Origin: Octopus vulgaris
Lineage: Eukaryota
NCBI GenBank assembly: GCA_951406725.2
Contig: OX597814.1
Location: 196,230,001-196,294,000 of the forward strand
Direction: 5' to 3'
DNA: 64,000 nucleotides
Numbering within the stretch: position 1 is the stretch's first letter; each line of letters opens with the position of its first letter. A program made the position numbers and the translations under genes. The notes under the pieces are model-generated. The model was given only the letters and a program-made list of their open reading frames with translations, was not told the origin of the DNA and made no database searches. Positions 2,713 to 60,599 of the stretch are shown here, piece after piece.

Positions 2713-3378
2713 AAAATAAAGGAAAGAAAATTAAAGGAAACGGTGTATGGTATTAAGTAACCTACCCGAAGAACATTGAAACAGAGAAGAAAATACTCAA
2801 GTTCAACCAAATAGTAAGAGTAAAGATACCAGCATACATATATGCAGAGGATATGAAGGCGATAGTAATTGGAGAAGAAAGTTATAAAATACTACAAGAA
2901 ATGTGTGGAGATAATATCGACCCATCAGGAATAAGGGTGGAATTCAAAGAATTGCCACCAGTAGTGGATTTAGTAGAAATCGAACCACTAATGAAATGTT
3001 ACTAAAAAATAAATAAGTATGTCAAATCGACAGGAAAAAAGAAAAGAAAAAGAAAAAGGAGGAAAAAAAAAAGAAAAGTGTTTTATGTTATATTTAATAA
3101 TATCAGAAAATAGAAGAACATTTTTAGAGAAAAATATAACGGATCAAATAATTGTAATGGTAGACGATAATTATTTGTTAGTTAAATATATGATAAAAAT
3201 GGACAGTTTAAAAAGATTAATGGTAATGCATGTGATGAGGGGCGCATGCAGCCATTCATAACCCCATTATTGTATAATGATTTCATCATATTCGTTTTAT
3301 GTAGTGTCCCCTCTGTGGTGTCCTGTCTGTCCTTGTTTGTCCCCCTCTATGTTTGGGCCCTTGTGGCTAATAAAGAAA
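2713..3378 (+). mobile_element. Non-LTR retroelement fragment 'A' with short ORF remnant and Tx1-like 3' end
   Basis: Flanked by caaagatagct (2702-2712) and cagagatagct (3379-3389); ORF remnant ~2772-3005 ending ...GDNIDPSGIRVEFKELPPVVDLVEIEPLMKCY*; ends gtggctaataaagaaa. Confidence 0.7.
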
Positions 3379-3393
3379 CAGAGATAGCTGTGT

Positions 3394-4191
3394 CTAGACA
3401 AAATTGACCCACTCGGAGTGTTGGTGAAGTTCGACGAACTGCCACTCGTAGATGAACTCAAAGACGTGGATCCTTACATGAGGTATTAAAATGAAAAAAA
3501 AAGAGTAAGTAAAATTGTTTCGAACAAAAAAAAGAGAGGAAAAAAATGATGATTAAGAAAAAACAATACACAAAAATAGAACGATTGTAATATAGTGTGT
3601 ATAAACGTTCAAATGGTACTGCATAGGAGTCGGGCCCATGCAGCCATTTCATTTTTTCCATTTTTATATAACATTCATTCGCATTCGTTTTATGTTTTAT
3701 GGGATCTTTTCGGTTTGACCGGCAGTTTTTAACATAATTTCTAGGTAGCTGAAAAATTTTAAACTTCGTATACAGATAGAATGTGTTTATAAAACATCTT
3801 TTTCTCTTGGCTTTATTGAGAAAATTCTATAGTTTGTAAGATATTTGGTCTTTAATTTCTTGCATTTCGGCAATTTCAACCAATCAATGACCGTCTATTG
3901 AGGTGAAAACATTATGTGCCGTATGAATATGTCTCTCGTTTAAGAAACAGATTGGGTTTATTTACATTTGTGAAGAAAAAAGATACCCTTCCCCCTAACC
4001 CTAACCCTAAAATAGATTGAAATGCAATAGATCGATACTAGCGTCATAATTATGGGTGACAATTTCATATGACACCGATAGAAAAACTGCCGTTCAAACC
4101 GAAAAATTCCGTTTTATGTCTCCACTGTGATGTTGTGTCTGTCCTTGTAGTGTCCTCCTCTGTGTTAGGCCGGGGTGCCAAATAAAGAAAT
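3394..4191 (+). mobile_element. Non-LTR retroelement fragment 'B' (homologous to A), interrupted by a MITE
   Basis: 15-bp TSD cagagatagctgtgt (3379-3393 and 4192-4206); ORF remnant LDKIDPLGVLVKFDELPLVDELKDVDPYMRY*; ends gtgccaaataaagaaa. Confidence 0.7.
3702..4110. mobile_element. MITE, Merlin-like (GG...CC termini, 8-bp TSD)
   Basis: ~28-bp TIRs ggatcttttcggtttga.cggcagttttt; TSD gttttatg at 3694-3701 and 4111-4118; second copy at 12290-12713. Confidence 0.85.
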
Positions 4192-4299
4192 CAGAGATAG
4201 CTGTGTGTTTACTGGTTTTACTGAGTAGACTGTATACCGAAGTGGGCGTTATAACAATCCAACATATAGTTAGGTGAGTCAAAGGTTCGAATGCGTCTG

Positions 4300-5140
4300 A
4301 GGGAATGTAACAAAAAAGTTGCTGTGAAACAGAGTGGGACTCCTGTATGTAAGCCAAAACGAAATGAAAAGTTGCCCACGGTAAAAGTTAAACATTGTTC
4401 AAAAATAGATATTCCGTGGTCGAGTATACACATCGATTTCGCTGGTCCTTTCAGAAATTTGTTAAGTCGAAACAACCAACCACCTCAACTGTGATAAATT
4501 TTTTACACGAATTGTTTGCAAGATTTGACATCTCAAACATGGTAGTGCTTGACAATGGAACGCAATTTGTGTCTAGCGAATTTAAAATGTTTTGTGAAAT
4601 GTGCGCGAGAGAACCTATAACTACTGTGCCATATCATCTCAGATTTAACAGAAAACAGAACGTTTTGATATCTCCAAAAGAGCCCTTAGAAAATCAAATA
4701 AGGAAGTCACGGATGAGGTACCTCTACAACAATTTTTCAGAGTGTACCGTGTGGTACCAAATCCGAATATACCAGAAGGTAGTTCACCTTGATTAATTGC
4801 TAGCTGGCAAGAAAAGAAAAAAATGTTAGGGAAATATAGTAAGATTTTTTAAAGTCGGTGAAAAGGTGTACATGAGGGCATACAAGAATGGAAAGCAGAG
4901 TTGGGAAGATGGCGTAATTACCAAGTGCATAAGGAAAATGTTGTACTAGGTATAAAGTAGAAATGGCGTATATAAGAGACACACGAAGCAACTGAAAAAG
5001 AAATTTGTGGAAAGCAAAGAGGTGGAATGGTTGTACGATACGATCCAAGTACCAACGCTACAACAGGTGATTGAACCCAGGCGGGGAAAAGAAAACATAC
5101 AGAGTTCGTGAAAATAGATGCCAAGCGCAAACCATATTAA
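4300..5140 (+). pseudogene. Gypsy integrase (rve) remnant, frameshifted
   Basis: PWSSIHIDFAGPF, LHELFARFD..VVLDNGTQFVSSEF..FC, TTVPYH and FKVGEKVY spread over several frames. Confidence 0.9.
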
Positions 5141-5791: not shown

Positions 5792-6137
5792 AGCGGTGAG
5801 CTGACAGAATTGTTAGCACGCCGGGAGAAATGCTTAGCGGTATTTCGTCTGCCGCTACGTTCTGACTTCAAATTCCGCTGAGGTCGACTTTGCATTTCAT
5901 CCTTTCGGGGTCGATAAATTAAGTATCAGTTACACACTGGGGTCGATGTAATCGACTTAATCCGTTTGTCTGTCCTTGTTTGTCCCCTCTGTGTTTAGCT
6001 CCTTGTGGGCAGTAAAGAAATAGGTATTCCGTCTGCCGTTACGTTCTGAGTTCAAATTCCGACGAGGTCGTCTTTGTCTTTCATCCTTTCGGGGTCGATA
6101 ATTTAAGTACCATTTACGCACTGGGGTCGATATAATG
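5792..6137 (+). mobile_element. SINE family D (Meta-domain-like), head-to-tail dimer
   Basis: tRNA-like head; core gcctttcatcctttcggggtcgataaattaagtaccag; tail ...gtgggcagtaaagaaata followed by a second unit starting ggtattccgtctg. Confidence 0.88.
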
Positions 6138-7619: not shown

Positions 7620-7964
7620 TATATATATATATAAAATATATATAAAAGAGTGAAAAAACTACAGAAGGCTTGTTTTATAAGGTTAAAGAATATACTTAAG
7701 TCGTTATGTTAGAAAAATGTTATAAAATTTTGTATATAGTAACATAGTTTTGGGAGAAATTACCGGTTTCGTGTAAACTTTTCAAATTTCTCAAATGTCT
7801 TTACCTACATCGTGTCATGTATTCATTATGAAGTGCAAAAAGAGTTCCAGCCAGGGGAAGTAAAAAGGGATTTCTTCCGGTATAAGGGAGATAATCGCTT
7901 TATATTTCTTTTCCCCTTTTTTAATGAGATGAGTTTCTCTGTATAAGAATGTTAGGATAAGAAG

Positions 7965-8645
7965 TTCAGGCTTATATTTTTCAATGAAAAATGTTTCCTT
8001 GTTTAATCTAATTTGTGTTGGTGTTCCAATAGCACATTGATAGAATGGAAAGATTAAAAATGGTGGCCGTAGTTGCTTTGCGCATTTCTCAATACGCTCA
8101 CTAAAGGGTATCATTCTGTATTCTGGGAATGCAATCTGTTGTCGATGCAGAGTGCATCTACGTCTGAGTGATAATCCCGTGGACCCTACGTAGTTTTGGT
8201 GGCAGCCCGAGCATCGTATTACATAAATTATGTTTTCAGAAGCAGAAGTAAAATTAGATCTGATCTTGAATTTTTGTCACTCTTTGAAAAGGAATTCTGA
8301 TCCTTCTAGAAGATTTGGGCATGTTGCGCAGTTTGGTGTACCACATTTTTTTACTTTTGCATCCGTAATTTCAGAAAACTACTTTGCCTTTGTGTGAATC
8401 TTTTTAAGTGATTTAGGTTGTTTGTAGCTTTTAATGATTTTATGTATGTTTAGAATTTCCTTTAATTTGGGGTCCTTATGAAGTATTGGTAAATTCTGGG
8501 TGATGATGGTGAAGGCTTCTTTGTTTCTGGGGTTGTATGTGGATATGTAAGGCAGTATTTTCGAGGAAGGTGTGTTGTTGTGTTGAATTTTTCTCAAAGT
8601 TTCTATGTCGATTTCTGCTGCACGTCTGATCCCATCCTCTATGGT
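7965..8645 (-). pseudogene. Penelope-like element: RT linker plus GIY-YIG endonuclease remnant
   Basis: LPYISTYNP...KQPKSLKK, then KCGTPNCATC...NIIYVIRCSGCHQNYVGSTGLSLRRRCTLHRQQI...RLNKETFFIEKYKPEL, with in-frame stops. Confidence 0.9.
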
Positions 8646-8774
8646 TTTCCTAAAGATCAAAGGATTCACAATAAGGATAAATGCGAAATTTTATCTCAGT
8701 AAACAGGTAGCAGTATGACAAATAGCTTCTCATAGGTTCTCAAAGTGTTTTTCTATTAATAATAGCTGAAGTCG

Positions 8775-8805: not shown

Positions 8806-8935
8806 GTTATTATTATTATTATTATTATTAGTAGTAGTAGTAGTTGTAGTAGTTGTTGTTGTTGTTGTTGTGGTAGTAGTAGTTGTAGCAACAACAACTT
8901 CAACAGCAATAATAATGATAATAATTATCATAATA
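8777..8935. repeat. Compound trinucleotide microsatellite (TTA)n-(GTA)n-(GTT)n-(CAA)n-(TAA)n
   Basis: Directly visible. Confidence 0.95.
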
Positions 8936-9670
8936 AAAGTGCAGCTCAAGAACAAGCATTAAGGACAAACTGTGTGATGTGTAGAATTGACAACACAACT
9001 GAGAGCGAAAAATACAGAAAGTGTGGGGAGAGAGGGGAGACGTTATGGTACATGCTTCGTGAATGCCCGAAACTGGCACAACAGGAATGCCAAAGACATA
9101 GCAATGTATCAAGAATGATCCATCGGGATCTCTTTCGAAATCACAGCCTACAATGAGCAAAGGCGTGGTATGACCAAATCCCAGAAAGAGTTGTTGAGAA
9201 TGAAGATTGTAAGATCCTGCGGGATGCAATGATTCAGTGTGACCATCAGATCAGGCATCGGAAACCTTAAATTGTTGTAGTGAACAAAAACTAAATATAA
9301 AATACAAACAGACTTGCATGATAATAGACATAGCATGTCCCGGTGAGAACAGGGTCAATGAGAAAGAAGAAAAATTGAACAACTCTGAGGTGAAAATTAC
9401 GCAGGTTTTGGGCAATGAAGAAAGTGGACATGATACTCTTAGTAATTGACGCGCTTGGAAGTATCAACACTCAACTAATAACAAGTCTCAAATAGAATGG
9501 TACAAATGTAAAGATAGAACATCTATAAAAGTCAACATTACTTGAAACTGCAGGAATTCTCCATTGGGTTGTTGAAGCATGGTCAGTAAACAAGTATCAA
9601 CTTAGTCTGCTGGCACTGATGGACATCTGACACTTTCCATCATACCTAGCAATATAATCTGAGTTTTTTC
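8935..9670 (+). pseudogene. R4/Dong-type non-LTR retrotransposon 3' fragment (zinc knuckle plus restriction-like endonuclease)
   Basis: RKCGERGETLWYMLRECPKLAQ, RHSNVSRMIH, AWYDQIPERVVENE..KIL, DHQIRHRKP.IVV, IIDIACPG; flanked by (TAA)n. Confidence 0.85.
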
Positions 9671-11065: not shown

Positions 11066-11920
11066 TATAGATGTGTAATACTGAGTACATATTTCATTGG
11101 TCACAATTTTGCCTTTTATCCTTTCACGATCGATAAAATAAATAAAGTCGAATCAATGAGCTAAACCTGTCTTGTATAAATCAAGCGGTATTGTCCCAAT
11201 GGTAGCAGCGATCATTATTTTGAGTTTACTTTCTATTAGAAGCAGTATTTTATTAAATTTTGTTCGTTGAAATTTGCTTTTTTTTTTTTCTCTTCTTTTC
11301 TATGAAGCAGAACACGAACGTCTATACAATGTACTAAGTTTTTATCTCGTATGTTTGACACTAGAAATGGTGTGCTTGCAATTTGAACGATAAATTACTT
11401 TGGAAGTTTTATATGTCTGCTACTAGGAAGCAATTGCCCAGTTACCGAAGCGCCGAGATTTCATCGGATTGGGAATTTTTCTTTAGTTTTGTAAACGAAA
11501 TTTTTTTTTTTCTGTTAAAAAAGCGTCAATTACAAAAAACACGTTTATTTGTTTCAACTTTATTTTACGAGTCCATTATTCTTAAACAAGAACGTTTTCA
11601 CAATGACATCGTAGGACGATGGCTTAGTTGACCGGAACTTCGAAGTTATAAGAAAGAATGTGTGTGTGTGATTGTGTGTATGTGTGTGTGTGACTAAGTG
11701 TATATATACAGGAGGGACATTCAGATCAAACGCTCTCGAAACTTAACGCTAGCAGACTTGATTTTAGTTATTTCGGATAGAAAAGGAAAATCGTGAAATC
11801 GTAGAAGTAAGCTTCCCTGCAGATGTAAACATCTTAAAACAAATCAGCGAGAAAAATAATATCTATAACAAGAGCCTAGAAATCTGTAAGCCCTTTACCC
11901 TGATTATAATTTACATTTCG

Positions 11921-12038
11921 GCTTACGGCCATATCACGTTGAAAGCACCGGTTCTCGTCCGATCACCGAAGTTAAGCAACGTCATGCCTAGTTAGTACTT
12001 AGATGGGAGACCGCTTGGGAAACCGAGGTGCAGTAATC
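11921..12038 (+). rRNA. 5S rRNA-derived sequence, probably a retroposed pseudogene or 5S-SINE
   Basis: 118-nt match to the metazoan 5S pattern (gcttacggccatatcacgttgaaagcaccggttctcgtccgatcaccgaagttaagc...gttagtacttagatgggagaccgc); no oligo-T terminator; 14-bp TSD. Confidence 0.92.
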
Positions 12039-12095
12039 GTCACATATTGTAAAGAAATATATATATATTAGTAAAGAAATATATAATTTACATTT

Positions 12096-12254
12096 TGTCG
12101 TGTGGATGCCCCCAGACAATGAAGTAGGCTAGCCCAATGCATAGACATAGAGGGAGAAGTCTAGACGCCGTCGAGCAAGCTGAGTAGTAGTAGAGAAAGT
12201 AGACTAGAGCATAGTAGAGTTGAGTGGTGGAGGCATCCGACGTACTACATAACA
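12096..12254. mobile_element. Solo LTR (159 bp)
   Basis: TG...CA termini; 5-bp TSD cattt (12091-12095 and 12255-12259); subterminal inverted ggatgcc/ggcatcc. Confidence 0.65.
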
Positions 12255-12289
12255 CATTTATATACCAATAATCATGGTATGCTCTTTTA

Positions 12290-12713
12290 GGATCTTTTCG
12301 GTTTGAACGGCAGTTTTTTTTAGCAGTGTCATATGAAATTGTCACCCATAATTATGATCCTAGTATCGATCTATTGCATTTCAATCTGTTTTAGAGTTAG
12401 GATTAGGGTTAGGGGTGGGGGAAGAGTATCTTTTTTTCTTCACAAATGTAAATAAACCCAATCTGTTTCTTAAACGAGGGACACATTCATACGGCACAGA
12501 ATATTTTTTTAGCTCAACAGACGTCACTGATTGGTTGAAATTGCAGAAATTGAAGAAAAACAAACAACAAATATCTTACAAACCATAGAATTTTCTCAAT
12601 AAAGCCAAGAGAAAAAGATGTTTTATAAACACATTCTACCAGTATACGAAGTTTAAAATTTTTTAGTTACCTAGAAATTATGTTAAAAACTGCCGTTCAA
12701 ACCGAAAAGATCC
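12290..12713. mobile_element. MITE, Merlin-like (opposite orientation to the 3702 copy)
   Basis: Perfect TIRs ggatcttttcggtttgaacggcagttttt; 8-bp TSD ctctttta (12282-12289 and 12714-12721). Confidence 0.9.
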
Positions 12714-12952
12714 CTCTTTTATGTTAGCAAATGTTAAAAGAAACAGTCTGGTAAAGCAAAGAAAGAGGTAGCTTAGAGCCTATATGGCTGCTGTCTGAGT
12801 GTAACAATGAAAATATACGAGCTCGCTATGAAGCAATTATCCTCGTTCTTATATAAATTGCATTTACAAACCAACTCTCTCTTACTGAGATAAATAATAA
12901 ATAAACAAAAATGTATAGACATGCGTAAATGCATACGCACATATGCACATGT

Positions 12953-21166: not shown

Positions 21167-21435
21167 TATACACACAAACACTCATATATGTGTGTGTGTA
21201 TATATATATATAGATATATATATACAATGAAGAAATGTATTCCCACGCAGGAAAGAGTTATTAATAAATTCATGCTTTACGATCCTTTAATTTGGCAAAT
21301 TTATAAAGCATCTATCTCCAAGCCATCTTTCATGGTCTTTTCATGTGCTCGATATATTTGAAAGATAGAACGCTGGACTGTGAGAAAGTGAGATAATATA
21401 TATAAATACATTCTACTATTTACTATTTATTTGAT

Positions 21436-21914
21436 GAGCGGTACATCATTTGTACGATGTGGAAAATATACCGCCAACTTTGCCCAAACGACCTAAACAT
21501 TAGCTTCAAGGTTCATCCGAGACTTGGACCACTGGCTATACGTCCCCTGCCAAATTCAAGATCACAACATACATGTACACTGCAACATAATTTCTTTTCC
21601 TCAACAGGCCCTGCCCTATTTAACATTGTCCCGAGGGAGATCAAAGAGGAAAAGGATCCCATCAACTTCAAACAGAGTCTGGATAGATTCCTTCAAAGAA
21701 TACCAGACAAGCCACCCATAATTGGATACAACTCACCCAACAAGAACTCACTACTTGAACAAAACTGGATACAACTCACCCAACAAGAACTCACTACTTG
21801 AACAAAACTTGACTTAAACAGGATTCGAATAATCCTATCAGGTGGTGCTATTAAGTTAGACATGGCCTGGACCAATCTCTGGTCGAAACATATCTAAGTT
21901 TTATCTAAGTTTTA
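21436..21914 (+). pseudogene. CR1-group LINE 3' end
   Basis: ERYIICTMWKI...FFSSTGPALFNIVPREIK...FKQSLDRFLQRIPDKP..GY..NSLLE; terminal (tatctaagttt)2; internal ~42-bp tandem duplication at 21729-21810. Confidence 0.8.
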
Positions 21915-31532: not shown

Positions 31533-32661
31533 TAACGAATAATTTACACCTGGTAGCTTACTGGTGAAGCACGGTCACATTCACAGTGATCGTTATGTAT
31601 ATTGTAAATGAAAAACGGAAGATAGAATATATAAATTCTCGTATATTCCATCTTCCATCTTTCATTTACCATAAATATATATATGAAATCCTATAAGACG
31701 AAATTTATCGTCTATTAGTATATCTCCTGTTACACGAAAGTGGATGGACATTAATGGGTGAATGACGTCGTCTCATTGTATGTTGCGAATTGCAGAAAAA
31801 TTTATGGAACGCAGCGCTTCAGTAGCGTCGGACGTGCCTCGCCTATGTGTTTCTACATGCGTATATACAGAAACATACATCACCCATATATATATATATA
31901 TATATATACACATACATATGCATACATATGTATACACATATATACTTATATGTGTGAGTGTATGTGTTTGTGAGTGTTTTTGTGTGTGTATGCGAAAAAT
32001 CTTGAAATGCCTTAAACTTATACTCATCCAATCAATATCAATATAATAGAGCATTATCTATGCAACAACTGTCACATTGAACATTAATCATGATAATATA
32101 CATAGCATTGGATTAACAACAAATCAATTTCTAAAGAGATTCTATCAACACAAGTATAATACCAAAATATGTTGATACTGGCCTAGCGATACATAAATGA
32201 TATTTGAAAAATTTTTTAGCAATATTAAATCAGCTCTTTCAGACAAAAATAATACATCATTACCCAATCTAGCCCATTCAGTTGATGTTATGCTCTTGAT
32301 AAACTCGTAAACCTTTAATACAGTACTAAAATATTAAGTATCTTTCATCAACTGATATCTTTGCGCTCACATATGCGGAAAAAACTTACGTTCCTCACCA
32401 ATCATATGTTGGAATTTCGATAGAAGGAGATATCTTTGTTTCTTTTCAAAACTATTTAACTCCTTAGTGTAACACCTGTGTGACATTCTCTTAACAATAA
32501 TTCTTCTAAAGCCGTCAGAATAATGGATCTTTGTATATGGACTGGATTTTCTCCCTATGTATATCTCTTTTCATAGAAGAAACAAATATACATAGGGAAA
32601 AAAATCATATAGAAAATATACTAATAGAAATTTCGTCTTATGGGATTTCATATATACATAT

Positions 32662-32945
32662 GAAGTCCACTGCCATCTCAACTCGAACTAAGCGCCGCTT
32701 ATTTAGTTCAAACGTAAAATCTGTGCTTTTGTATGGCTCTGAAACATGGAGAGCCACCTGCAGCAACTACAAGAAGATCCAGACTTTCATCAACAAATGT
32801 CTCCGTCAGATCCTCCATCTGAAGTGGTTCGACAGAGTGCCAAACACCGACCTGTGGGAAAGGGCCAACCAGGAGCCTATACATGTTCAGATTAGACGAA
32901 GGAAATGGAAATGGATCGATCGTACACACTGCGGAAAGAACCCTT
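32662..32945 (+). pseudogene. RTE-clade LINE C-terminal fragment
   Basis: ISTRTKRRLFSSNVKSVLLYGSETW...IQTFINKCLRQIL...W...QIRRRKWKWI..TLRK. Confidence 0.9.
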
Positions 32946-33921
32946 CAGTAGCAGTCGTGTATCTAACTGTATACGCAAGATACATTAAAATATATTAGCA
33001 AAATAAAATTTCCCAGTGTTTGTTGCCACATCCCTAAACAGACATTTTAGTTCGTGACTCCTCTATTTGCAATTGTAATTCTAATTTACTTTGATGTATT
33101 TTTACGCGTTGGATATTAAGCTTCATTGCACGGTTCGTCTGTTTGCTTTCGTGATCGATACAACTGTTTGCTTCAACTACTTTCACTAGAACAACACAAT
33201 TGCTGAAAGATGAAAGTAGTCACTTCCTTATTGAGATTTGAACTCGAGACAAAGGGAGTTAGACACTATTGTCTCCGACACATTTTATCTGATACTTAAT
33301 ACTTTACACTTCTTGTATATTATAGACATTTTATTTCATAACATTTTCTGTCCTGCTAATAAACAAGTTGAAAAAAATATGGTTTAGATAGACAACAATT
33401 AATGATGGCGATAAAGATAAACGAACTTGCTGTGATAATTATCCTTCTGAAAATCTAACATATATATTTCTGATTTTTTTTTTGTGTTATAAGTAGCAGC
33501 GATATTTGTAATTATTAAAAATGTTCTTTCAATTAAGTGAATAGTTATAATTAGCTAATATTTACGTGACCATAATTTATAACTAAAATTCCTTATAGCT
33601 CCTAGTTGTTTAACTATCTGGCAATTAATTAAAAGGTCAAATATTAATATCGTGTAAATGGTAATAAAACACTTAAAATGTAATTAACAAAATTTGTAAA
33701 TAAGGGCCATGGGGAGATAAGCTATAATTCTACAGTAGATTACAGTGCTAATACAAATCTGATGTGTTAAATCAATGTCGAATACTGGTTTTGTGTAATT
33801 TTGAATCTCGAATATGGTGTCGAATTACCGTCTAAGGCTATGGTTTCCCATCCTCAGATAGACAGGTAGATAGATAGATGGAGAAGGAGAAAGTGAGTGA
33901 GAGAGAGAGAGACGATAGTAT

Positions 33922-34155
33922 CTATTTCTTTACTACTCACAAGGGGCTAAACACAGAGAGGACAAACAAGGACAGACAGACGGATTAAGTCGATTATATC
34001 GACCCCAGTGCGTAACTGGTACTTAATTTATCGACCCCGAAAGGATGAAAGGCAAAGTCGACCTCGGCGGAATTTGAAGTCAAAACGTAGCGGCAGGAGA
34101 AATACGGCTACGCATTTTGCCCGGCGTGCTAACGATTCTGCCAGATCGCCGCCTT
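33922..34155 (-). mobile_element. SINE family D monomer
   Basis: Full head and tail; 14-bp TSD agagacgatagtat. Confidence 0.9.
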
Positions 34156-38995: not shown

Positions 38996-39227
38996 CTATT
39001 TCTTTACTACCCACAAGGGGCTAAACACAGAGAGGACAAACAGGTTCAGACAAACGGATTAAGTTGATTGCATCGACCCCAGTGCGTAAATGGTACTTAA
39101 TTTATCGACCCCGAAATGATGAAAGGCAAAGTCGACCTCGGCAGAATTTGAACTCAGAACGTAACGGCAGACGAAATACCGCTAAGTATCTCGCCCGACG
39201 TGCTAACGTTTCTGCCAGCTCGCCCCC
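38996..39227 (-). mobile_element. SINE family D monomer
   Basis: 15-bp TSD tttgtggttgaagcc. Confidence 0.9.
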
Positions 39228-40142
39228 TTTTTGTGGTTGAAGCCGTCCACAGCAGTTCCCTACTAAAACTTACACAAATTACTACAGAAGGATTTACTAA
39301 CGACATTAATACTTTCGGTACAAAATACTTTTTGGAAATATTCTTTTCCTATTTATCGCTCTCGTTGTTACTAGCAACCCTGACCAATAGGAAAATGTTT
39401 TCTCGAATACTCTACTTTCTGCCAGAAAGTGACTCGCACAGACCAATACACAAATGCATTCAGATGCACACCAACAGAGAAAATAGCAACACACGCACAC
39501 ATACATTCGCACGCACAAAAAGCACATATACACACATATAGACCTACACTCATATACACACACTCACATACAGAAATACTACAAAGCAGTTGTGCTAATT
39601 AGCCGCAATTCGGAATGGTTATCGTCTCTTGTCATGCTGTCCTCATCAACATAATAGTTTCTTTGCAAATCCATCGTGACTTTTGCAACTTAAAAATAAA
39701 CAAGAAATATAAAAAACAAAAAGACAAGCAAAAATGCATAACAAAAAATAAACAAAAAAAACACCAAACAAAAATAGAGGAATGTATGTTAGTTCGATTT
39801 CTCTAACAATGATGAAACGTTAAGCCATAACAGTGTATAGCTTCAGGCTAAATAAATATCAACATGAATAGGTCGAACAGAAGAGACAGAAACGTCTGGT
39901 ACAATAAGAATGTGCGCGCAGCATGTTTTCCTAACCTTTTACTAACCACACACAAGTCTATTATGCTTTTTCTTCGATTGCAGTTGTATTAAATTTGTTC
40001 TTTTTTATATTTTATTTATTTTCAGTGCAGTTTAATGTGTTAAATTCGAAACGTTTGTGTAACAAGTTTTTTTTTTTCATCTTTCAAAGACTATATTTTT
40101 GTGTTTTATAAATAGACTTTTATTTTTTTGTCGAAATCTCTC

Positions 40143-45176: not shown

Positions 45177-46074
45177 AAGGCAGAAACGTTAGCACGCAGG
45201 GAGAAATGCTTAGCGGTGTTTCGTCTGATTTTACATTCTGAGTTCAAATTCCACCAAGGTTGACTTTGCCTTTCACCCTTTTGGGGTCGACAAACTAAGT
45301 ACCAGTTGCGTACTGGGGTCGATATAATCGTCTTAATCCGTTTGTCTGTCCTTGTTTGTCCCCTCTATGTTCAGCCCCTTGTGGGTAGTAAAGAAATAGG
45401 TATTTCGTCTGTCGTTACGTTTTGAGTTCAAATTACACCGAGGTCGACTTAGCCTTTCATCCTTTAGGGGTCGATAAATTAAGTACCAGTTGCGTACTGG
45501 GCTCGATCTAATCGACAGACTCCCTCCCTCAAAATTAATGGCATTGTTACTAGAGTAGAAAAGAATATTTAAGTCGGCGAGCTGGCAGAAACCTTAGCAC
45601 GCCGGGCGAAATGCTTTGTGGTATTTCGTCCGCCGTTACGTTCTGAGTTCAGATTCCGCCGAGGTCAACTTTGCCGTTCATACTTTCGGGTTCGACAAAT
45701 TAAGTACGAGTTACGCACTGGGGTTGATGTAACAGACTTAATCCGTTTGTCTGTCCTTGTTTGTCCCCTCTGTGTGTAGCCCCTTGTGGGTAGTAAAGAA
45801 ATAGGTATTTCGTCTGCCGCTACGTTCTGAGTTCAAATTCCGCCGAGGTCGACTTTGCCTTTCATCCTTTCGCGGTCGATTAAGTAAGCACCAGTTACGC
45901 ACTGGGGTCGATATAATCGACTTAATCCGTTTGTTTGTCCTTGTTTGTCCTCTCTGTGTGTAGCCCCTTGTGGGTAGTAAAGAATAGGTATTACGTCTGC
46001 CGTTTAGTTCTGAGTTGAGATTCCACCGAGGTAGACTTTCAACCTTTCGGGGGTCGATAAATTAAGTACTAGTT
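45177..46074 (+). mobile_element. Array of family D SINE units (dimer 45177-45568, trimer 45574-46074)
   Basis: Each tail gtagtaaaga(a)ata is followed by ggtatt(t/a)cgtctg. Confidence 0.9.
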
Positions 46075-50653: not shown

Positions 50654-52537
50654 GCCCATCACTCTGCTTAATGGAGACTTGAAAATTTTGGCCAAGGTGC
50701 TAGCCAAGAGGTTGGCGCTTGTCATCGAGAATCTGGTCGACAGGGCGCAAACATGCGCCGTGCCGGGCCAGACCATCCATGACAACCTCCACCTGATGCG
50801 CTACATCATAGACAGGGTAGTTAACGAACCTGGCATGGGTGGGGCGCTGATCAATTTGGATCAATCGAAAGCTTTCGATAGGGTAGACCATCGATACTTG
50901 GAGGCGGTCCTCAGAGCGGCAGGCTTCGGTCCCGTCTTCCGCGGCTGGATAGCCGCTTTGTACAGAGGCATCCGTTCGGTAATTCGCGTGAATGGACATC
51001 TATCGAGACCCTTCGACATCGCACGTTCGGTCCGTCAGGGATGCCCCCTCTCGTCGCTTCTATACGTATTGACTCTCGAGCCATTATTGCGGAAGCTGGC
51101 AACTTTGAGGGGCATCCCGCGAGAACTGGGATGCGGGACGAGCGTGTCTGCATACGCGGACGACGTCACCGTCATAGTGTCTAGCCACGAGCACATCGAG
51201 CAGGTCGGCGAGACACTGAAAAACTACGAAGCGGTGACAGGAGCGAAAATCAACCGGGAAAAGTCAGTGGGCTTGCGACTAGGCACCTGGAGAAGCAAGC
51301 CCATGCCGTCCACCAGCGCCTCCGTCGTGGGACGCTGGACCGACGGCCCGGTTGAGTTGCTCGGGGTCTGGTTTGGTTCGGACCTCCAAGTGGAGAAGAA
51401 CTGGAACGAGATAACGAGTAGGGTGGTTACTCTCGCCCGGCAATGGGCCGAGAGGAAACTGTCCCTAAAAGGTCGGGCGGAGGTGGCGAACACGTACATC
51501 GCGTCCGTCATCTACTACCGCCTGACCGTCGTACCTTGTCCCGACCCTACCATCACCAAACTACAACGCATTCTCTTTCGCTTCTTGTGGAAAGGATGCG
51601 TCCCGATGGTCAGGCGATCCATTTGCTGTCAACACCCGCTAAAAGGAGGGCTGGGCATGCCGTGGTTGATGATGCGCAGACACGCGCTGAGACTGCGACA
51701 TCTCTGGCTCTATGTAGACGACGGTGAACAGGTGTGGTCGCCGTTTGTGAGGTACGCTTTCCCGCAGCTCGTCTCCATGACCGAACTGCAGTCGTGGATC
51801 AAAAAGAGGCCGAGGAAGGGCGATTGGCACCGCGAGTGTCGCGTTGCGCTCAAGCAACTCTGCCGTCCCGGGTCGACCTTGAGTGACTTCAACACAACCA
51901 AAGCATTCTATAGGGGATTAGTGGAGGGGAGGTACGACGACGAGCTCGGGGCGAACCTGGACGTCGACGAGGAGTACCTGACCCGCCTGTTCAGGACGAC
52001 TTTCGGGCCAGGGCCCATGGACAACTTCCAGAGATCCCTGGCCTGGCAGTGCTACCGAGAAGCGCTACCCGTTCGGGATAAGCTCTACAGACACGGCTCG
52101 AGAAACACGGGGCCGACCTGCCCGAGATGCGGTCAGAGCGACGAAACCGTTCTGCACGCACCCGTGCAGTGTCCAACAATTTCCGACCTGTGGGCTTATG
52201 TCGAACAACTGCTGTCACGTGTGGGACGAGTCGGTTTATCAGCTGAGTCTATCGTCAATATTGTCACGCCTCCTTCCTTCAAACGGGAAGGAAGAGCTAT
52301 TTTCATCATCCTTGTGGCTATGGCGAAAGAATGTATCTGGTGGACGCGTCTGAAGGGATTGGAGACAAACAATTTCCTCTCTGGTCAATCTCTCATCAAC
52401 TTCTTCAAGTACCACTTGAAAAGGAAAGTGAAAGTAGAGAGGCAAGTTTTGTCTAGCGAATGTTTTAAAAAAGATGGATGAATGTAGCAAGGATGGCACG
52501 TATGAATGACGAAGCCACCTTGAGCATAATCCTATGA
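50654..52537 (+). CDS. L1/Tx1-clade ORF2, 5'-truncated: reverse transcriptase plus C-terminal CCHC zinc finger
   Basis: PITLLNGDLKILAKVLA.RL, LDQSKAFDRVDH, VRQGCPLS.LLY, AYADD, KGGLG, CPRC...ETVLH...C; open to 52481, and a single-A frameshift gives the likely native end (KRWMN...LSIIL*) at 52537. The listed ORF's N-terminus is only (TATC)n. Confidence 0.95.
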
Positions 52538-53003
52538 ACCCAGAAATTGAAAACAGAGGGTTACCCACTTGCAAACAAATGTGGTAACATATAACAATAT
52601 TGACCAAGGTTACCGTGGTCTTTTTCGTAGGCTTTTCTTCCCACGGATAAACCTTACTTGCTTTCCCCTTTACACTATATATCATAACACTGTGATACAC
52701 GATCCCTATTGATCGTCCTTTTTTTTCCTCTTCCCCTTTTTTCCCCCTTTTTTCTTCTTTTTTCATTTCTCTTTCCTTTTGTTCCTTTTCCTTTTCTTTT
52801 TTTTCTTTTTATTCTATTTATTTTATTCAATTTTTTTTTGTTTTTGTTCTTTTCTTCCCTTTTACGATCCCTCTTGATCGAAAACCTACGCCACCCCCTT
52901 TTTTTTTTCTTTTGTTTTTTGTTCTCTTCATCCCCCAAAAGAAAAGCTCTACCTTGTAACTTGTCCCATCTGTGTGCAGCCCTGTGTGGCCAATAAAGAA
53001 ACT
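50654..53003 (+). mobile_element. Tx1-like LINE inserted in (TATC)n
   Basis: GC-rich ORF, T-rich 3' UTR, ends gtggccaataaagaaact; (TATC)n at 50563-50653 and 53004-53090. Confidence 0.9.
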
Positions 53004-53010
53004 TATCTAT

Positions 53011-53092
<82 letters not shown>

Positions 53093-53356: not shown

Positions 53357-53617
53357 GTCTCCCATTTTTCTTCTTTTTTCATTTCTCTTTTCTTTTGTTC
53401 CTTTTCTTTTTCTTCTTTTTTTATTTATTTTATTTTTTATTTTTTTTATTCTATTATTTTTGTTCTTCTTTTTCCCTTTTACGATCCCTTTAGATCGAAA
53501 ACCTACGCCACCACTTTTTTTTGTTTCCTTTTTTTTTTTTTTTCATCCTCCAAAAGAAAAGCTCTGCCTTGTAACTTGTCCCATCTGTGTGCAGCCCTGT
53601 GTGGCCAATAAAGAAAC

Positions 53618-53618
<1 letters not shown>
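53357..53618 (+). mobile_element. Second, 3'-UTR-only copy of the same LINE in (TATC)n
   Basis: Homologous to 52742-53003 but diverged; same 3' junction aataaagaaact|tatcta. Confidence 0.9.
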
Positions 53619-53683
<65 letters not shown>

Positions 53684-53692
53684 GTCTATCTA

Positions 53693-53728
<36 letters not shown>

Positions 53729-54092
53729 CAACATATACACATTTACAGACGTATGTACGCGTATATATATGTTTATACGTGTGTTCATATGTGTACACAT
53801 GCTTATGCGTGTGTGTGTGTGTGTGCGTGCGTATGTATGTGTGTGTATACGTCTTTGTACGTATGAGCGCGTAGGTATATTTGTGTTTGCACGAGTACTA
53901 GTGTTTATATATATACGTATATGTGCGTCTGTGTGTGTGTAAGTTGAAAATTTAATTTCAAGACGTGTCTCATTATTATAAAAGAACAATAACAAAAAAA
54001 GAATCTCACTTTTTTTTTTTCGCTGAAGTCGACAGACTTACCGCTTCACACTCGTCAACTTTATTATCATGAACATCATCCGTTAATCCAAC

Positions 54093-59235: not shown

Positions 59236-60228
59236 TATATGTGTGTGTTTGAGCCTGTATGTCCGTGTGTGAATGCATGTGTTTGTGTGTGTGTAGTTAG
59301 CTAGTCAGCGATTTACACCTGTCAACATAACAGTGAGCTGAGGACGAATCGCTGTCACTGTTTTTCAATAACGAAGAATTACAAACAGCAACATATTCAC
59401 ATGAAATTCTGTTTCCAATTGGAAATCTTCCATAGCTAGTTTGCAGAGTTTCTTTTTTTCGGCTTCAGCAGTTGCCGTGAATATAATCTATGAAGACGTT
59501 ACTTTGATTACTAGTCTAGCTGTTTTATAGTCATGCCTCAAATTTGGTTAGAAAAGTTAAGAGGGTCACACATCCTGTTGAAAAATATAGTATTGCATTT
59601 TCTAATTTAGACACACACTGAGGAAAGTTTGTCGATTCAACGGAACACAGTTCACTGGGACGTATTTTGACGATCTTAGAATATTGAAAGGTGACCCAGT
59701 ACAGGTGTGGGAGGGGGTCACCTGTCATAAGCCATCTTACGATAACAAGTACTACCAGAAGCTAAACTGGAAAATATGTTCGCCAATTCACTAACGTGTA
59801 TTACAGAAAGTCATTGGTATTTTCTCTATTCAAACCACATGCACAAACTTTACATATTTTTCCAAAAACGACCAAAAGCGTCGATTGATTTGAATCAATT
59901 GTGAATCGCTGGAAATTGTCAGAAGAATCAGCTGGAAGACTTCTGCTGATATATGGACTCAACGTGAGTGACTTGTTGTTAAATAGCATCAACAGTTCAG
60001 CATCACCACCGCCGCCGTCGCTACCCCCCCCCCCCAACAACAACACAGAAAATAACAATACACATAGAACACAACAGCAAAGCTAGGTTGGAGCCTCTCT
60101 ATAGACAGTCGACTAGCTAGAAATATGAGTCACCGTGTATCCCCCCAAAAAGGACGCGATGGATGCAAATACTAACAAATTTGATTGCCTATTTTTCAAA
60201 GTAATTAAGGGATTTAATAATATTTTCG

Positions 60229-60599
60229 TCGGGCGAAATGCTTAGTGGTATTTCGTCTGTCTTTACGTACTGAGTTCAAATTCCACCGTGGTCGACTTTA
60301 CCTTCATCCTTTCGGGGTCGATTAAATACGTACCAGTTACGCACTGGGGTCGATATAATCGACTTAATCCGTTTGTCTGTCCTTGTTTGTCCCTTCTGTG
60401 TTTATCCCCTTGTGGGTAGTAAAGAAATAGGTATTTCGTCTGTCTTTACGTTCTGAGTTCAAGTTTCGCCGAGGTCGACTTTGCCTTTAATCCTTTCGGG
60501 ATCGATAAATTAAGCACCACTTGCGTAATGGGGTCGATCTAATCGACTGGTCCCCTCCCCCCAAAATTTCGGGCCTTGTGCCTAGAGTAGAAAAGAATA
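60229..60599 (+). mobile_element. SINE family D dimer
   Basis: Unit 1 with gtaaagaaata tail; unit 2 with gtgcctagagtagaaaagaat tail; flanking direct repeat aataatattttcgt. Confidence 0.9.

Follow-up and report, generated by a model that had tools for sequence, protein, structure and literature searches.

A full-length 5S rRNA retrocopy with a borrowed SINE-type 3' end in the genome of Octopus vulgaris

The stretch of Octopus vulgaris DNA analyzed here (the window, 64,000 nucleotides, numbered from its first letter) contains a retroposed copy of 5S ribosomal RNA with a borrowed 3' end. Retroposition had already been proposed in the first-pass annotation and is supported by both the anatomy of the insertion and its target-site duplication (TSD). 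At the highest level, the architecture of the locus reads 5S + trailer + TAGTAAAGAAATA. The insertion and its immediate surroundings comprise the following features.

11750-11904 (+): left host sequence (frameshifted translations; contig depth slightly raised at 11800-11839)
11905-11918 (+): 5' copy of the TSD, 14 bp, exact repeat
11919-11920 (+): two extra bases, CG (from the sequence; the listed loose-end consensus before 11921 does not end in CG)
11921-12039 (+): full-length copy derived from 5S rRNA (Rfam, 93.6 bits; variant table; control genes)
12037-12048 (+): degraded version of the 3' trailer that other 5S copies have in common (listed loose-end consensus; ungapped pieces to 12043-12048)
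12049-12081 (+): added tail, with GTAAAGAAATA twice at 22-nt spacing (from the sequence; last 13 nt equal to the SINE-D end)
12082-12095 (+): 3' copy of the TSD, 14 bp, exact repeat
12096-12254 (no strand): distinct TGT...ACA element, its inverted ends imperfect, with CATTT (5 bp) duplicated (from the sequence)
12255-12284 (+): host sequence, which likely resumes here (CATTT repeated; the translation would continue, with a hydrophobic stretch)

The 5S portion matches the Rfam family RF00001 over the full length of the model (positions 1-120). It is the sole match at gathering score in the window, and the sole 5S match among the best 150 of 293 Rfam rows at E<=0.5. Its span equals the 118-nt 5S described earlier plus the 'g' that had been assigned to the tail. 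The insert starts two nucleotides before 5S base 1 and lacks upstream spacer; the earlier layout of TSD, 5S and tail is accurate overall, except that it passed over these two bases, which are likely untemplated. The TSD copies, TATAATTTACATTT, are indeed identical and constitute the only exact repeat of at least 8 nt between both tested edge regions. In a null test, a non-simple exact 14-mer repeat was found in 5 of 20,000 random position pairs at the same spacing. The two copies enclose 163 nt, made up of the 5S with the extra bases in front and a tail of 42 nt behind.

Two features of a functional 5S gene, a T-run terminator directly downstream and intact helices, are lacking at 11921-12039. 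The first run of four T after the 5S end appears only at 12093, in agreement with the terminator-free end reported before, and several non-standard pairs are present in the Rfam alignment; the z-score of the minimum free energy is 0.40, although this is a weak test. The control eukaryotic 5S genes L010 and L012 carry a T-run immediately 3' of the gene. Compared with the control genes, the copy shows 18 differences in 119 nt, and its internal control region is recognizable, with changes at 11984 and 12008. It is probably inert. According to the covered part of the SINEBase description (PMC3531059), a SINE3 head is at least 60% identical to 5S rRNA across 60 nt or more, and a SINE is short (<1 kb), interspersed and non-tandem; the copy surpasses the former value, and a 163-nt insertion that holds the window's one 5S at gathering score agrees with the latter. 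The controls stem from four prokaryote genome records (L009-L012) that contain eukaryote-type 5S with 84-90% identity and different flanks; one of them, L012, has two 5S copies about 510 nt apart. These sequences are probably contamination. The 5' motif of the 5S has no match in viral contigs and matches four loci in prokaryote genome contigs.

The statement that the insertion lies inside a LINE remnant needs to be revised for its right side, where the TGT...ACA element directly follows the TSD and is inserted inside its 3' copy. We take this element to be solo-LTR-like or a Ginger-type MITE. All four sequencing runs introduced below show its first ~72 nt at high copy number, and the remainder departs from the common form; in run X1 its depth reaches up to 101,169 versus 15.7 in the flank, and 72 X1 contigs have unrelated flanks before 12096. 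On the left side, frameshifted peptides are found. They resemble, as we presume, the C-terminus of a restriction-like endonuclease (RLE-type LINE), so that the left host sequence is likely a decayed C-terminal piece of such an element, a candidate label. Searches for a homolog gave no match among PDB sequences or in the protein index and only unnamed clusters in the Atlas; a single match to a representative protein was rejected as spurious. An origin of the 5S from an LTR of the Cassandra/Ajax type is dismissed as well: 5S copies begin at 5S base 1-3 with unrelated flanks, and the adjoining TGT...ACA element is bracketed by a duplication of its own.

A 3' trailer that recurs in other 5S copies is matched by the first ~10 nt of what had been called the tail. 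Among the matches listed, the trailer consensus behind 12036 has the same start in X1 (29 contigs), X2 (28) and X5 (10). At the locus, 12037-12048 is a decayed version of it, and we infer that this first part belongs to the 5S source, probably as its pre-terminator trailer. Hence, the possibility that the tail is nothing but normal 5S spacer, raised at the outset, is borne out in part. For the downstream continuation of the trailer, no match was obtained in the window. Matches to the trailer motif elsewhere (three metagenome, two viral and three prokaryote genome contigs) were discarded as chance, with an Rfam match at none of the eight loci.

The remainder of the tail leads to the SINE and LINE families of the window, for which the following features are relevant.

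38997-39228 (-): comparison monomer of SINE D, terminated by the shared 13 nt and flanked by a 15-bp TSD (repeat alignment)
33923-34154 (-): second terminal SINE-D monomer, 14-bp TSD (comparison copy)
50655-53002 (+): 5'-truncated LINE with RVT_1 and zf-RVT (Pfam), 3' end resembling the SINE-D end
38997-39070 (-), 33924-33997 (-), 3307-3380, 4120-4193, 52931-53004: shared 3' ends (alignment)

GTAAAGAAATA occurs at 12049 and again at 12071, as reported; this repeat is part of a larger tandem duplication of ~22 nt, which takes in four nucleotides of the TSD. The last 13 nt (12069-12081) are identical (13/13) and in the same orientation to the end of the SINE-D monomer, one or two nucleotides more than the 11-12 nt recognized previously. 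A 13-nt match has a chance of ~1e-7 per position, and the 13-mer is terminal in both elements. Yet the motif does not always terminate SINE D: six copies in the window carry it, two of which end there with their own TSD, while four run into a second SINE unit. In both terminal monomers, the TSD directly follows the shared motif, and these TSDs measure 14 and 15 bp, as would be expected if the same type of enzyme had made the 5S insertion. The motif has no match in viral contigs or prokaryote genome contigs.

One could also imagine two separate events or a DNA-level orphon, in which a 5S fragment arrived first and a 13-nt SINE-D stub later, or in which the 13-nt match arose by chance. The tail is AT-rich, and the TGT...ACA element inside the 3' TSD points to an insertion hot spot. 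We nevertheless consider this scenario very improbable, given that both parts lie within a single TSD, that the insert starts two nucleotides before 5S base 1 without upstream spacer, and that the 13-mer is both rare by expectation and terminal in the two elements.

SINE D is ~230 nt long, with a head that we take to be of tRNA type and a presumably Deu/Nin-like middle; ARAGORN found no tRNA in it. Its copies differ by 5.7-9.1% from their majority, which is near the overall divergence of the 5S copy. Dimers or oligomers are present at 5793-6136, 45179-46060 and 60227-60599, where a headless second unit follows the end motif; these second units begin at the same internal position, and some finish in a different tail. 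Over its 3' ~55 nt, SINE D can be aligned to the 3' terminus of the RVT_1 and zf-RVT containing LINE, as well as to the ends of two more elements (near 3378 and 4190). In a search for a conserved hairpin, none of four SINE/LINE 3' ends folded better than shuffled sequences (z -0.10 to 1.49). The 5S tail shares only the terminal 13 nt of this SINE-D/LINE end; that the upstream shared part is missing is more readily explained by a switch of template after initiation than by an RNA that bore the entire signal.

The LINE at 50655-53002, whose closest named protein (65% identity) is from Argonauta hians, encodes a candidate relative of the mobilizing enzyme; a search with its reverse transcriptase protein gave no host contigs. 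The Tx1-like label used before for the enzyme comes from no tool, Pfam giving only RVT_1 and zf-RVT; we take the LINE to be L1/Tx1-like. On this assumption, the alignment of the 3' ends suggests that the L1/Tx1 group contains a SINE partner with which the tail is shared. Such a partner is absent from the covered rows of the partner table in PMC3747384. The 3' UTR and end of the LINE are locally duplicated (52742-53092 and 53358-53868). A protein named from a bacterial MAG (P0005) is 63% identical to the LINE protein of the window and probably reflects host contamination of that MAG.

The window contains further mobile elements. Two LINE-type 3' ends (3295-3393 and 4108-4206), ~800 nt apart, are each followed by the same 14-nt target, AGAGATAGCTGTGT, which suggests a sequence-specific element; between them lies a MITE (3701-4105) related to 12295-12714. 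Decayed coding remnants are found at 4392-4796, 8902-9153, 7815-8690, 32510-32998 and 21406-21801, which we presume to be integrase-like, RLE-type LINE, Penelope-like, RTE-like and CR1-like, respectively. The remnant at 8902-9153 yielded neither a Pfam family nor a homolog.

In order to estimate copy numbers, contigs of four public DNA runs with four organism labels (X1, X2, X5 and X8) were compared with the locus at 80% likeness. These are four of the eight runs with a word share of at least 0.2 among 24 runs listed; the other 16, including all RNA runs (0.02-0.07), have a word share of at most 0.07. X1 may be the window's own sample. The mean depth of the 5S body is 228,036 in X1 (flank 15.7), 397,572 in X2, 308,131 in X5 and 62,523 in X8; summed contig depth is not copy number, and all depth figures are to be read as orders of magnitude. 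In all four runs, contigs that enter the 5S at 11921 or 11923 have 5' flanks that are long, AT-rich and unrelated to one another (36+28, 30+35, 28+22 and 32+37 contigs at the two positions among the matches listed). The agreement among these flanks is 0.41-0.47. Unrelated flanks at the same start indicate dispersed full-length 5S copies in every run. Thus, 5S-like DNA is very abundant and partly dispersed, and the 5S of the locus is not a lone copy. There are likely hundreds of dispersed full-length copies, an estimate that mixes tandem-array and dispersed copies.

The tail behaves differently from the body. None of the 26 longest 5S pieces listed (from the best 32 of 5,702), which have 10-22 differences each, runs past 12048 or into GTAAAGAAATA. 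In X1, the tail reaches a depth of 559-759 versus 15.7 in the flank, that is, fewer than 50 single-copy equivalents with unrelated matches included. The ratio of tail to body depth is 0.25-0.33% in X1, 0.07% in X5, 1.1-1.7% in X2 and 6.9-23.5% in X8. The X8 pieces listed extend from 12049 to 12086 and are preceded by sequence other than 5S; they are probably SINE-D ends followed by TA repeats. Tailed relatives may be undercounted, inasmuch as mismatches of the 5S copy near 12022-12041 lower contig placement there (depth about 7-fold down in X1). Moreover, a young family would break into short pieces in contigs, and a shared body or tail could be hidden by the 3' loose ends, which are shorter (median 44-86) than the 5' ones (106-255). 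The 5' junction of the insertion is present without difference in X1 and X2. A joint that skips the insert, i.e. an empty site, was found in none of the four runs, where X5 has no cover of the flank and X8 partial cover. Among the contigs listed, none spans the 3' half of the 5S copy; like the gaps in flank cover, this is evidence neither for nor against the insertion. The low tail depth is compatible with up to ~20 related copies that carry the junction. The question of a single copy, on which the first-pass annotation had made its SINE proposal depend, is therefore to be answered separately: 5S retrocopies in general are numerous, and the tailed form is likely close to single.

These data bear on the first of two origins considered in that annotation, a SINE3 family member or a template-switch chimera. 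A true SINE3 family of at least 100 copies, consisting of 5S, trailer and SINE-D/LINE-type tail and moved by a Tx1-like LINE, would be in line with the 13-nt terminal identity and the matching TSD length. Two listed loose-end consensus lines are also A-rich after the trailer (X5 behind 12036, X2 behind 12024), and the run listings comprise only the best 32 of 5,702 pieces and the best 24 of 665 loose-end rows. We regard such a family as improbable, because the listed 5S pieces do not reach the tail, because tail depth is so low in X1 and X5, and because the rest of the shared SINE-D/LINE end is missing. Judged indirectly by contig depth, the combined 5S and tail modules stay below the at least 100 copies named in the covered part of SINEBase (PMC3531059), which for simple SINEs also asks for diagnostic changes relative to the gene. 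The chimera is the origin that fits better.

Private changes of the 5S copy are confined to 11984-12041, and none falls within 11921-11983 (variant table; contig breaks at 11949). Clustering of the 8-10 private changes in the 3' half has a p of about 0.001-0.004, and the TSD copies remain identical; clustered changes next to identical TSD copies are a poor fit to neutral decay. The source may itself have been a 5S-derived locus that had diverged beforehand; alternatively, abundant 5S copies may have converted the 5' half, or a further switch onto true 5S rRNA may have taken place. The letters of the copy at 11985 and 12008 account for at most 0.32% and 0.13% of X1 depth, respectively, and non-majority letters at these non-CpG positions for 0.02-1.25% across the runs, a homogeneity expected of rDNA arrays or of a very young family. 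By X1 allele depth, a small SINE-like subfamily is capped at roughly 20-25 single-copy equivalents. Allele classes of the 5S pool vary by run: T at 11959 makes up 24-33% in three runs and 91% in X5, A at 11981 ranges from 57 to 85%, and roughly half of the dispersed copies begin with GT, not GC (position 11922). The classes at 11922, 11959 and 11981 point to at least two source 5S types.

It is possible, though less likely, that the source was not rRNA but the master of a 5S-derived SINE. This could be a tail-variable simple 5S SINE, one copy of which gained a SINE-D end at the locus, similar to MEG-RS, reportedly a simple SINE of 5S plus tail, or a small subfamily of ~20 copies or fewer sharing the 3'-half changes. 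The dozens of full-length dispersed copies per run (58-69 contigs at both main start positions together), the varying allele shares at 11959, 11981 and 5S position 2, and the 3' concentration of private changes are in agreement with such a master. So are published counts, seen here in part: the O. vulgaris annotation lists four SINE/5S families over 9.83 Mb (PMC13282606), and ~24,000 5S-derived loci, many called likely SINEs, are given for the giant squid Architeuthis dux (PMC6962438). However, most of the 5S depth is homogeneous, as for rDNA arrays, neither a SINE body nor a diagnostic substitution relative to the true gene was found, and 5S type-1 promoters need upstream signals and are often silent in retrocopies, according to the covered part of PMC3272025.

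Our favored reading, to which we give a somewhat better than even chance, is a one-off or few-copy chimera: the reverse transcriptase of a LINE would have started at an RNA end of the SINE-D type before switching to a 5S transcript that carried the trailer. It is preferred on account of the exact TSD, the TSD lengths of SINE D, the shared trailer, the scarce tail, the rare private letters and the published switch mechanisms. As expected for chimeras, one TSD encloses a small RNA together with a retroelement 3' end, and the end of an abundant retroelement, in the same orientation, makes up the 3' part. According to this model, an enzyme of the L1/Tx1 type, which is probably the partner of SINE D, would nick the AT-rich target and prime on the SINE-type 3' end, aided by TA microhomology with the target. 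The ~22 nt could have been doubled by slippage during priming or by later replication slippage. The enzyme would then jump to the 3' end, terminating in U, of a 5S transcript not yet processed, copy this transcript to base 1 and add two bases, and repair would produce the 14-bp duplication. As a more tentative extension, octopods might harbor an undescribed simple 5S SINE with hundreds to thousands of dispersed copies, moved by the L1/Tx1-type LINE that serves their dominant tRNA-SINE; the locus would then record a second-generation step, by which a diverged 5S master gained a 3' end recognized by this LINE.

As a chimera, the locus has small biological weight and offers a clean, unamplified snapshot of the presumed founding step of 5S-SINEs, i.e. 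the switch from a tRNA-SINE end to 5S RNA. Abundant, partly dispersed 5S-derived DNA also inflates counts of rRNA genes. At stake are whether cephalopods possess an independent SINE3 and whether an L1/Tx1-type LINE can act as a tail-recognizing SINE partner.

The following comparisons with known systems refer to the covered parts of the sources. The O. vulgaris annotation also includes 80 L1-Tx1 families (PMC13282606), and its repeat library may already contain the 5S family of the locus. Like the window, both this genome and that of A. dux feature high-copy 5S-derived DNA labelled SINE-like; the likeness is by description, as the covered texts give no structure, tail or partner LINE. In the literature covered, cephalopod 5S DNA is tabulated as SINE/5S but not dissected: the structure of a cephalopod SINE3 is absent from the covered parts of PMC6472339, PMC10886601, PMC3747384, PMC8967140, PMC4758252, PMC5786205 and PMC10946416, and neither such a structure nor a SINE3-Tx1 pairing was found in the open-licence literature. 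Tailless 5S retropseudogenes (PMC5322556) resemble the locus in being LINE-made and flanked by TSDs, and number hundreds per genome; they are 3'-truncated at loops, whereas the octopus copy is full-length with trailer and tail. SINE3 families, namely zebrafish SINE3, AmnSINE1, OS-SINE1, Ped-1 and MEG-RS/RL (tables in PMC3747384 and PMC10946416), likewise have a 5S-derived 5' part retroposed with a TSD. In contrast, the octopus copy has no body and its tailed copies number fewer than 100 as far as tested; the SINE3 partners in the covered table rows are CR1/L2-type, RSg-1 or BovB, not Tx1.

Closer parallels are found among chimeric retrocopies. Template-switch chimeras have been treated in PMC4494074, and for 5S rRNA/LINE-1 and U6/LINE-1 chimeras, template switching or RNA ligation has been proposed (bioRxiv 10.1101/2025.02.02.635956). 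In both, as at the locus, the small RNA lies 5' of a retroelement 3' end, with one TSD around both parts, and the U6/L1 forms share with it the full-length, sense arrangement. Human 5S/L1 chimeras are mostly truncated and antisense, whereas the octopus 5S is full-length, sense and provided with a 3' trailer; its 3' partner, unlike theirs, is only 13 nt of a SINE-type end without poly(A). For HaSE3 of Helicoverpa armigera (PMC3272025), a template switch from a tRNA-SINE RNA to 5S rRNA has been proposed, as we do here. HaSE3, however, took a whole body and tail and became a multi-copy family with an RTE partner, whereas the octopus copy acquired 13 nt and gives no indication of having been amplified. 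In copy number, the locus thus falls short of a tailed SINE3 as far as tested, and it resembles the proposed founding step of such SINEs.
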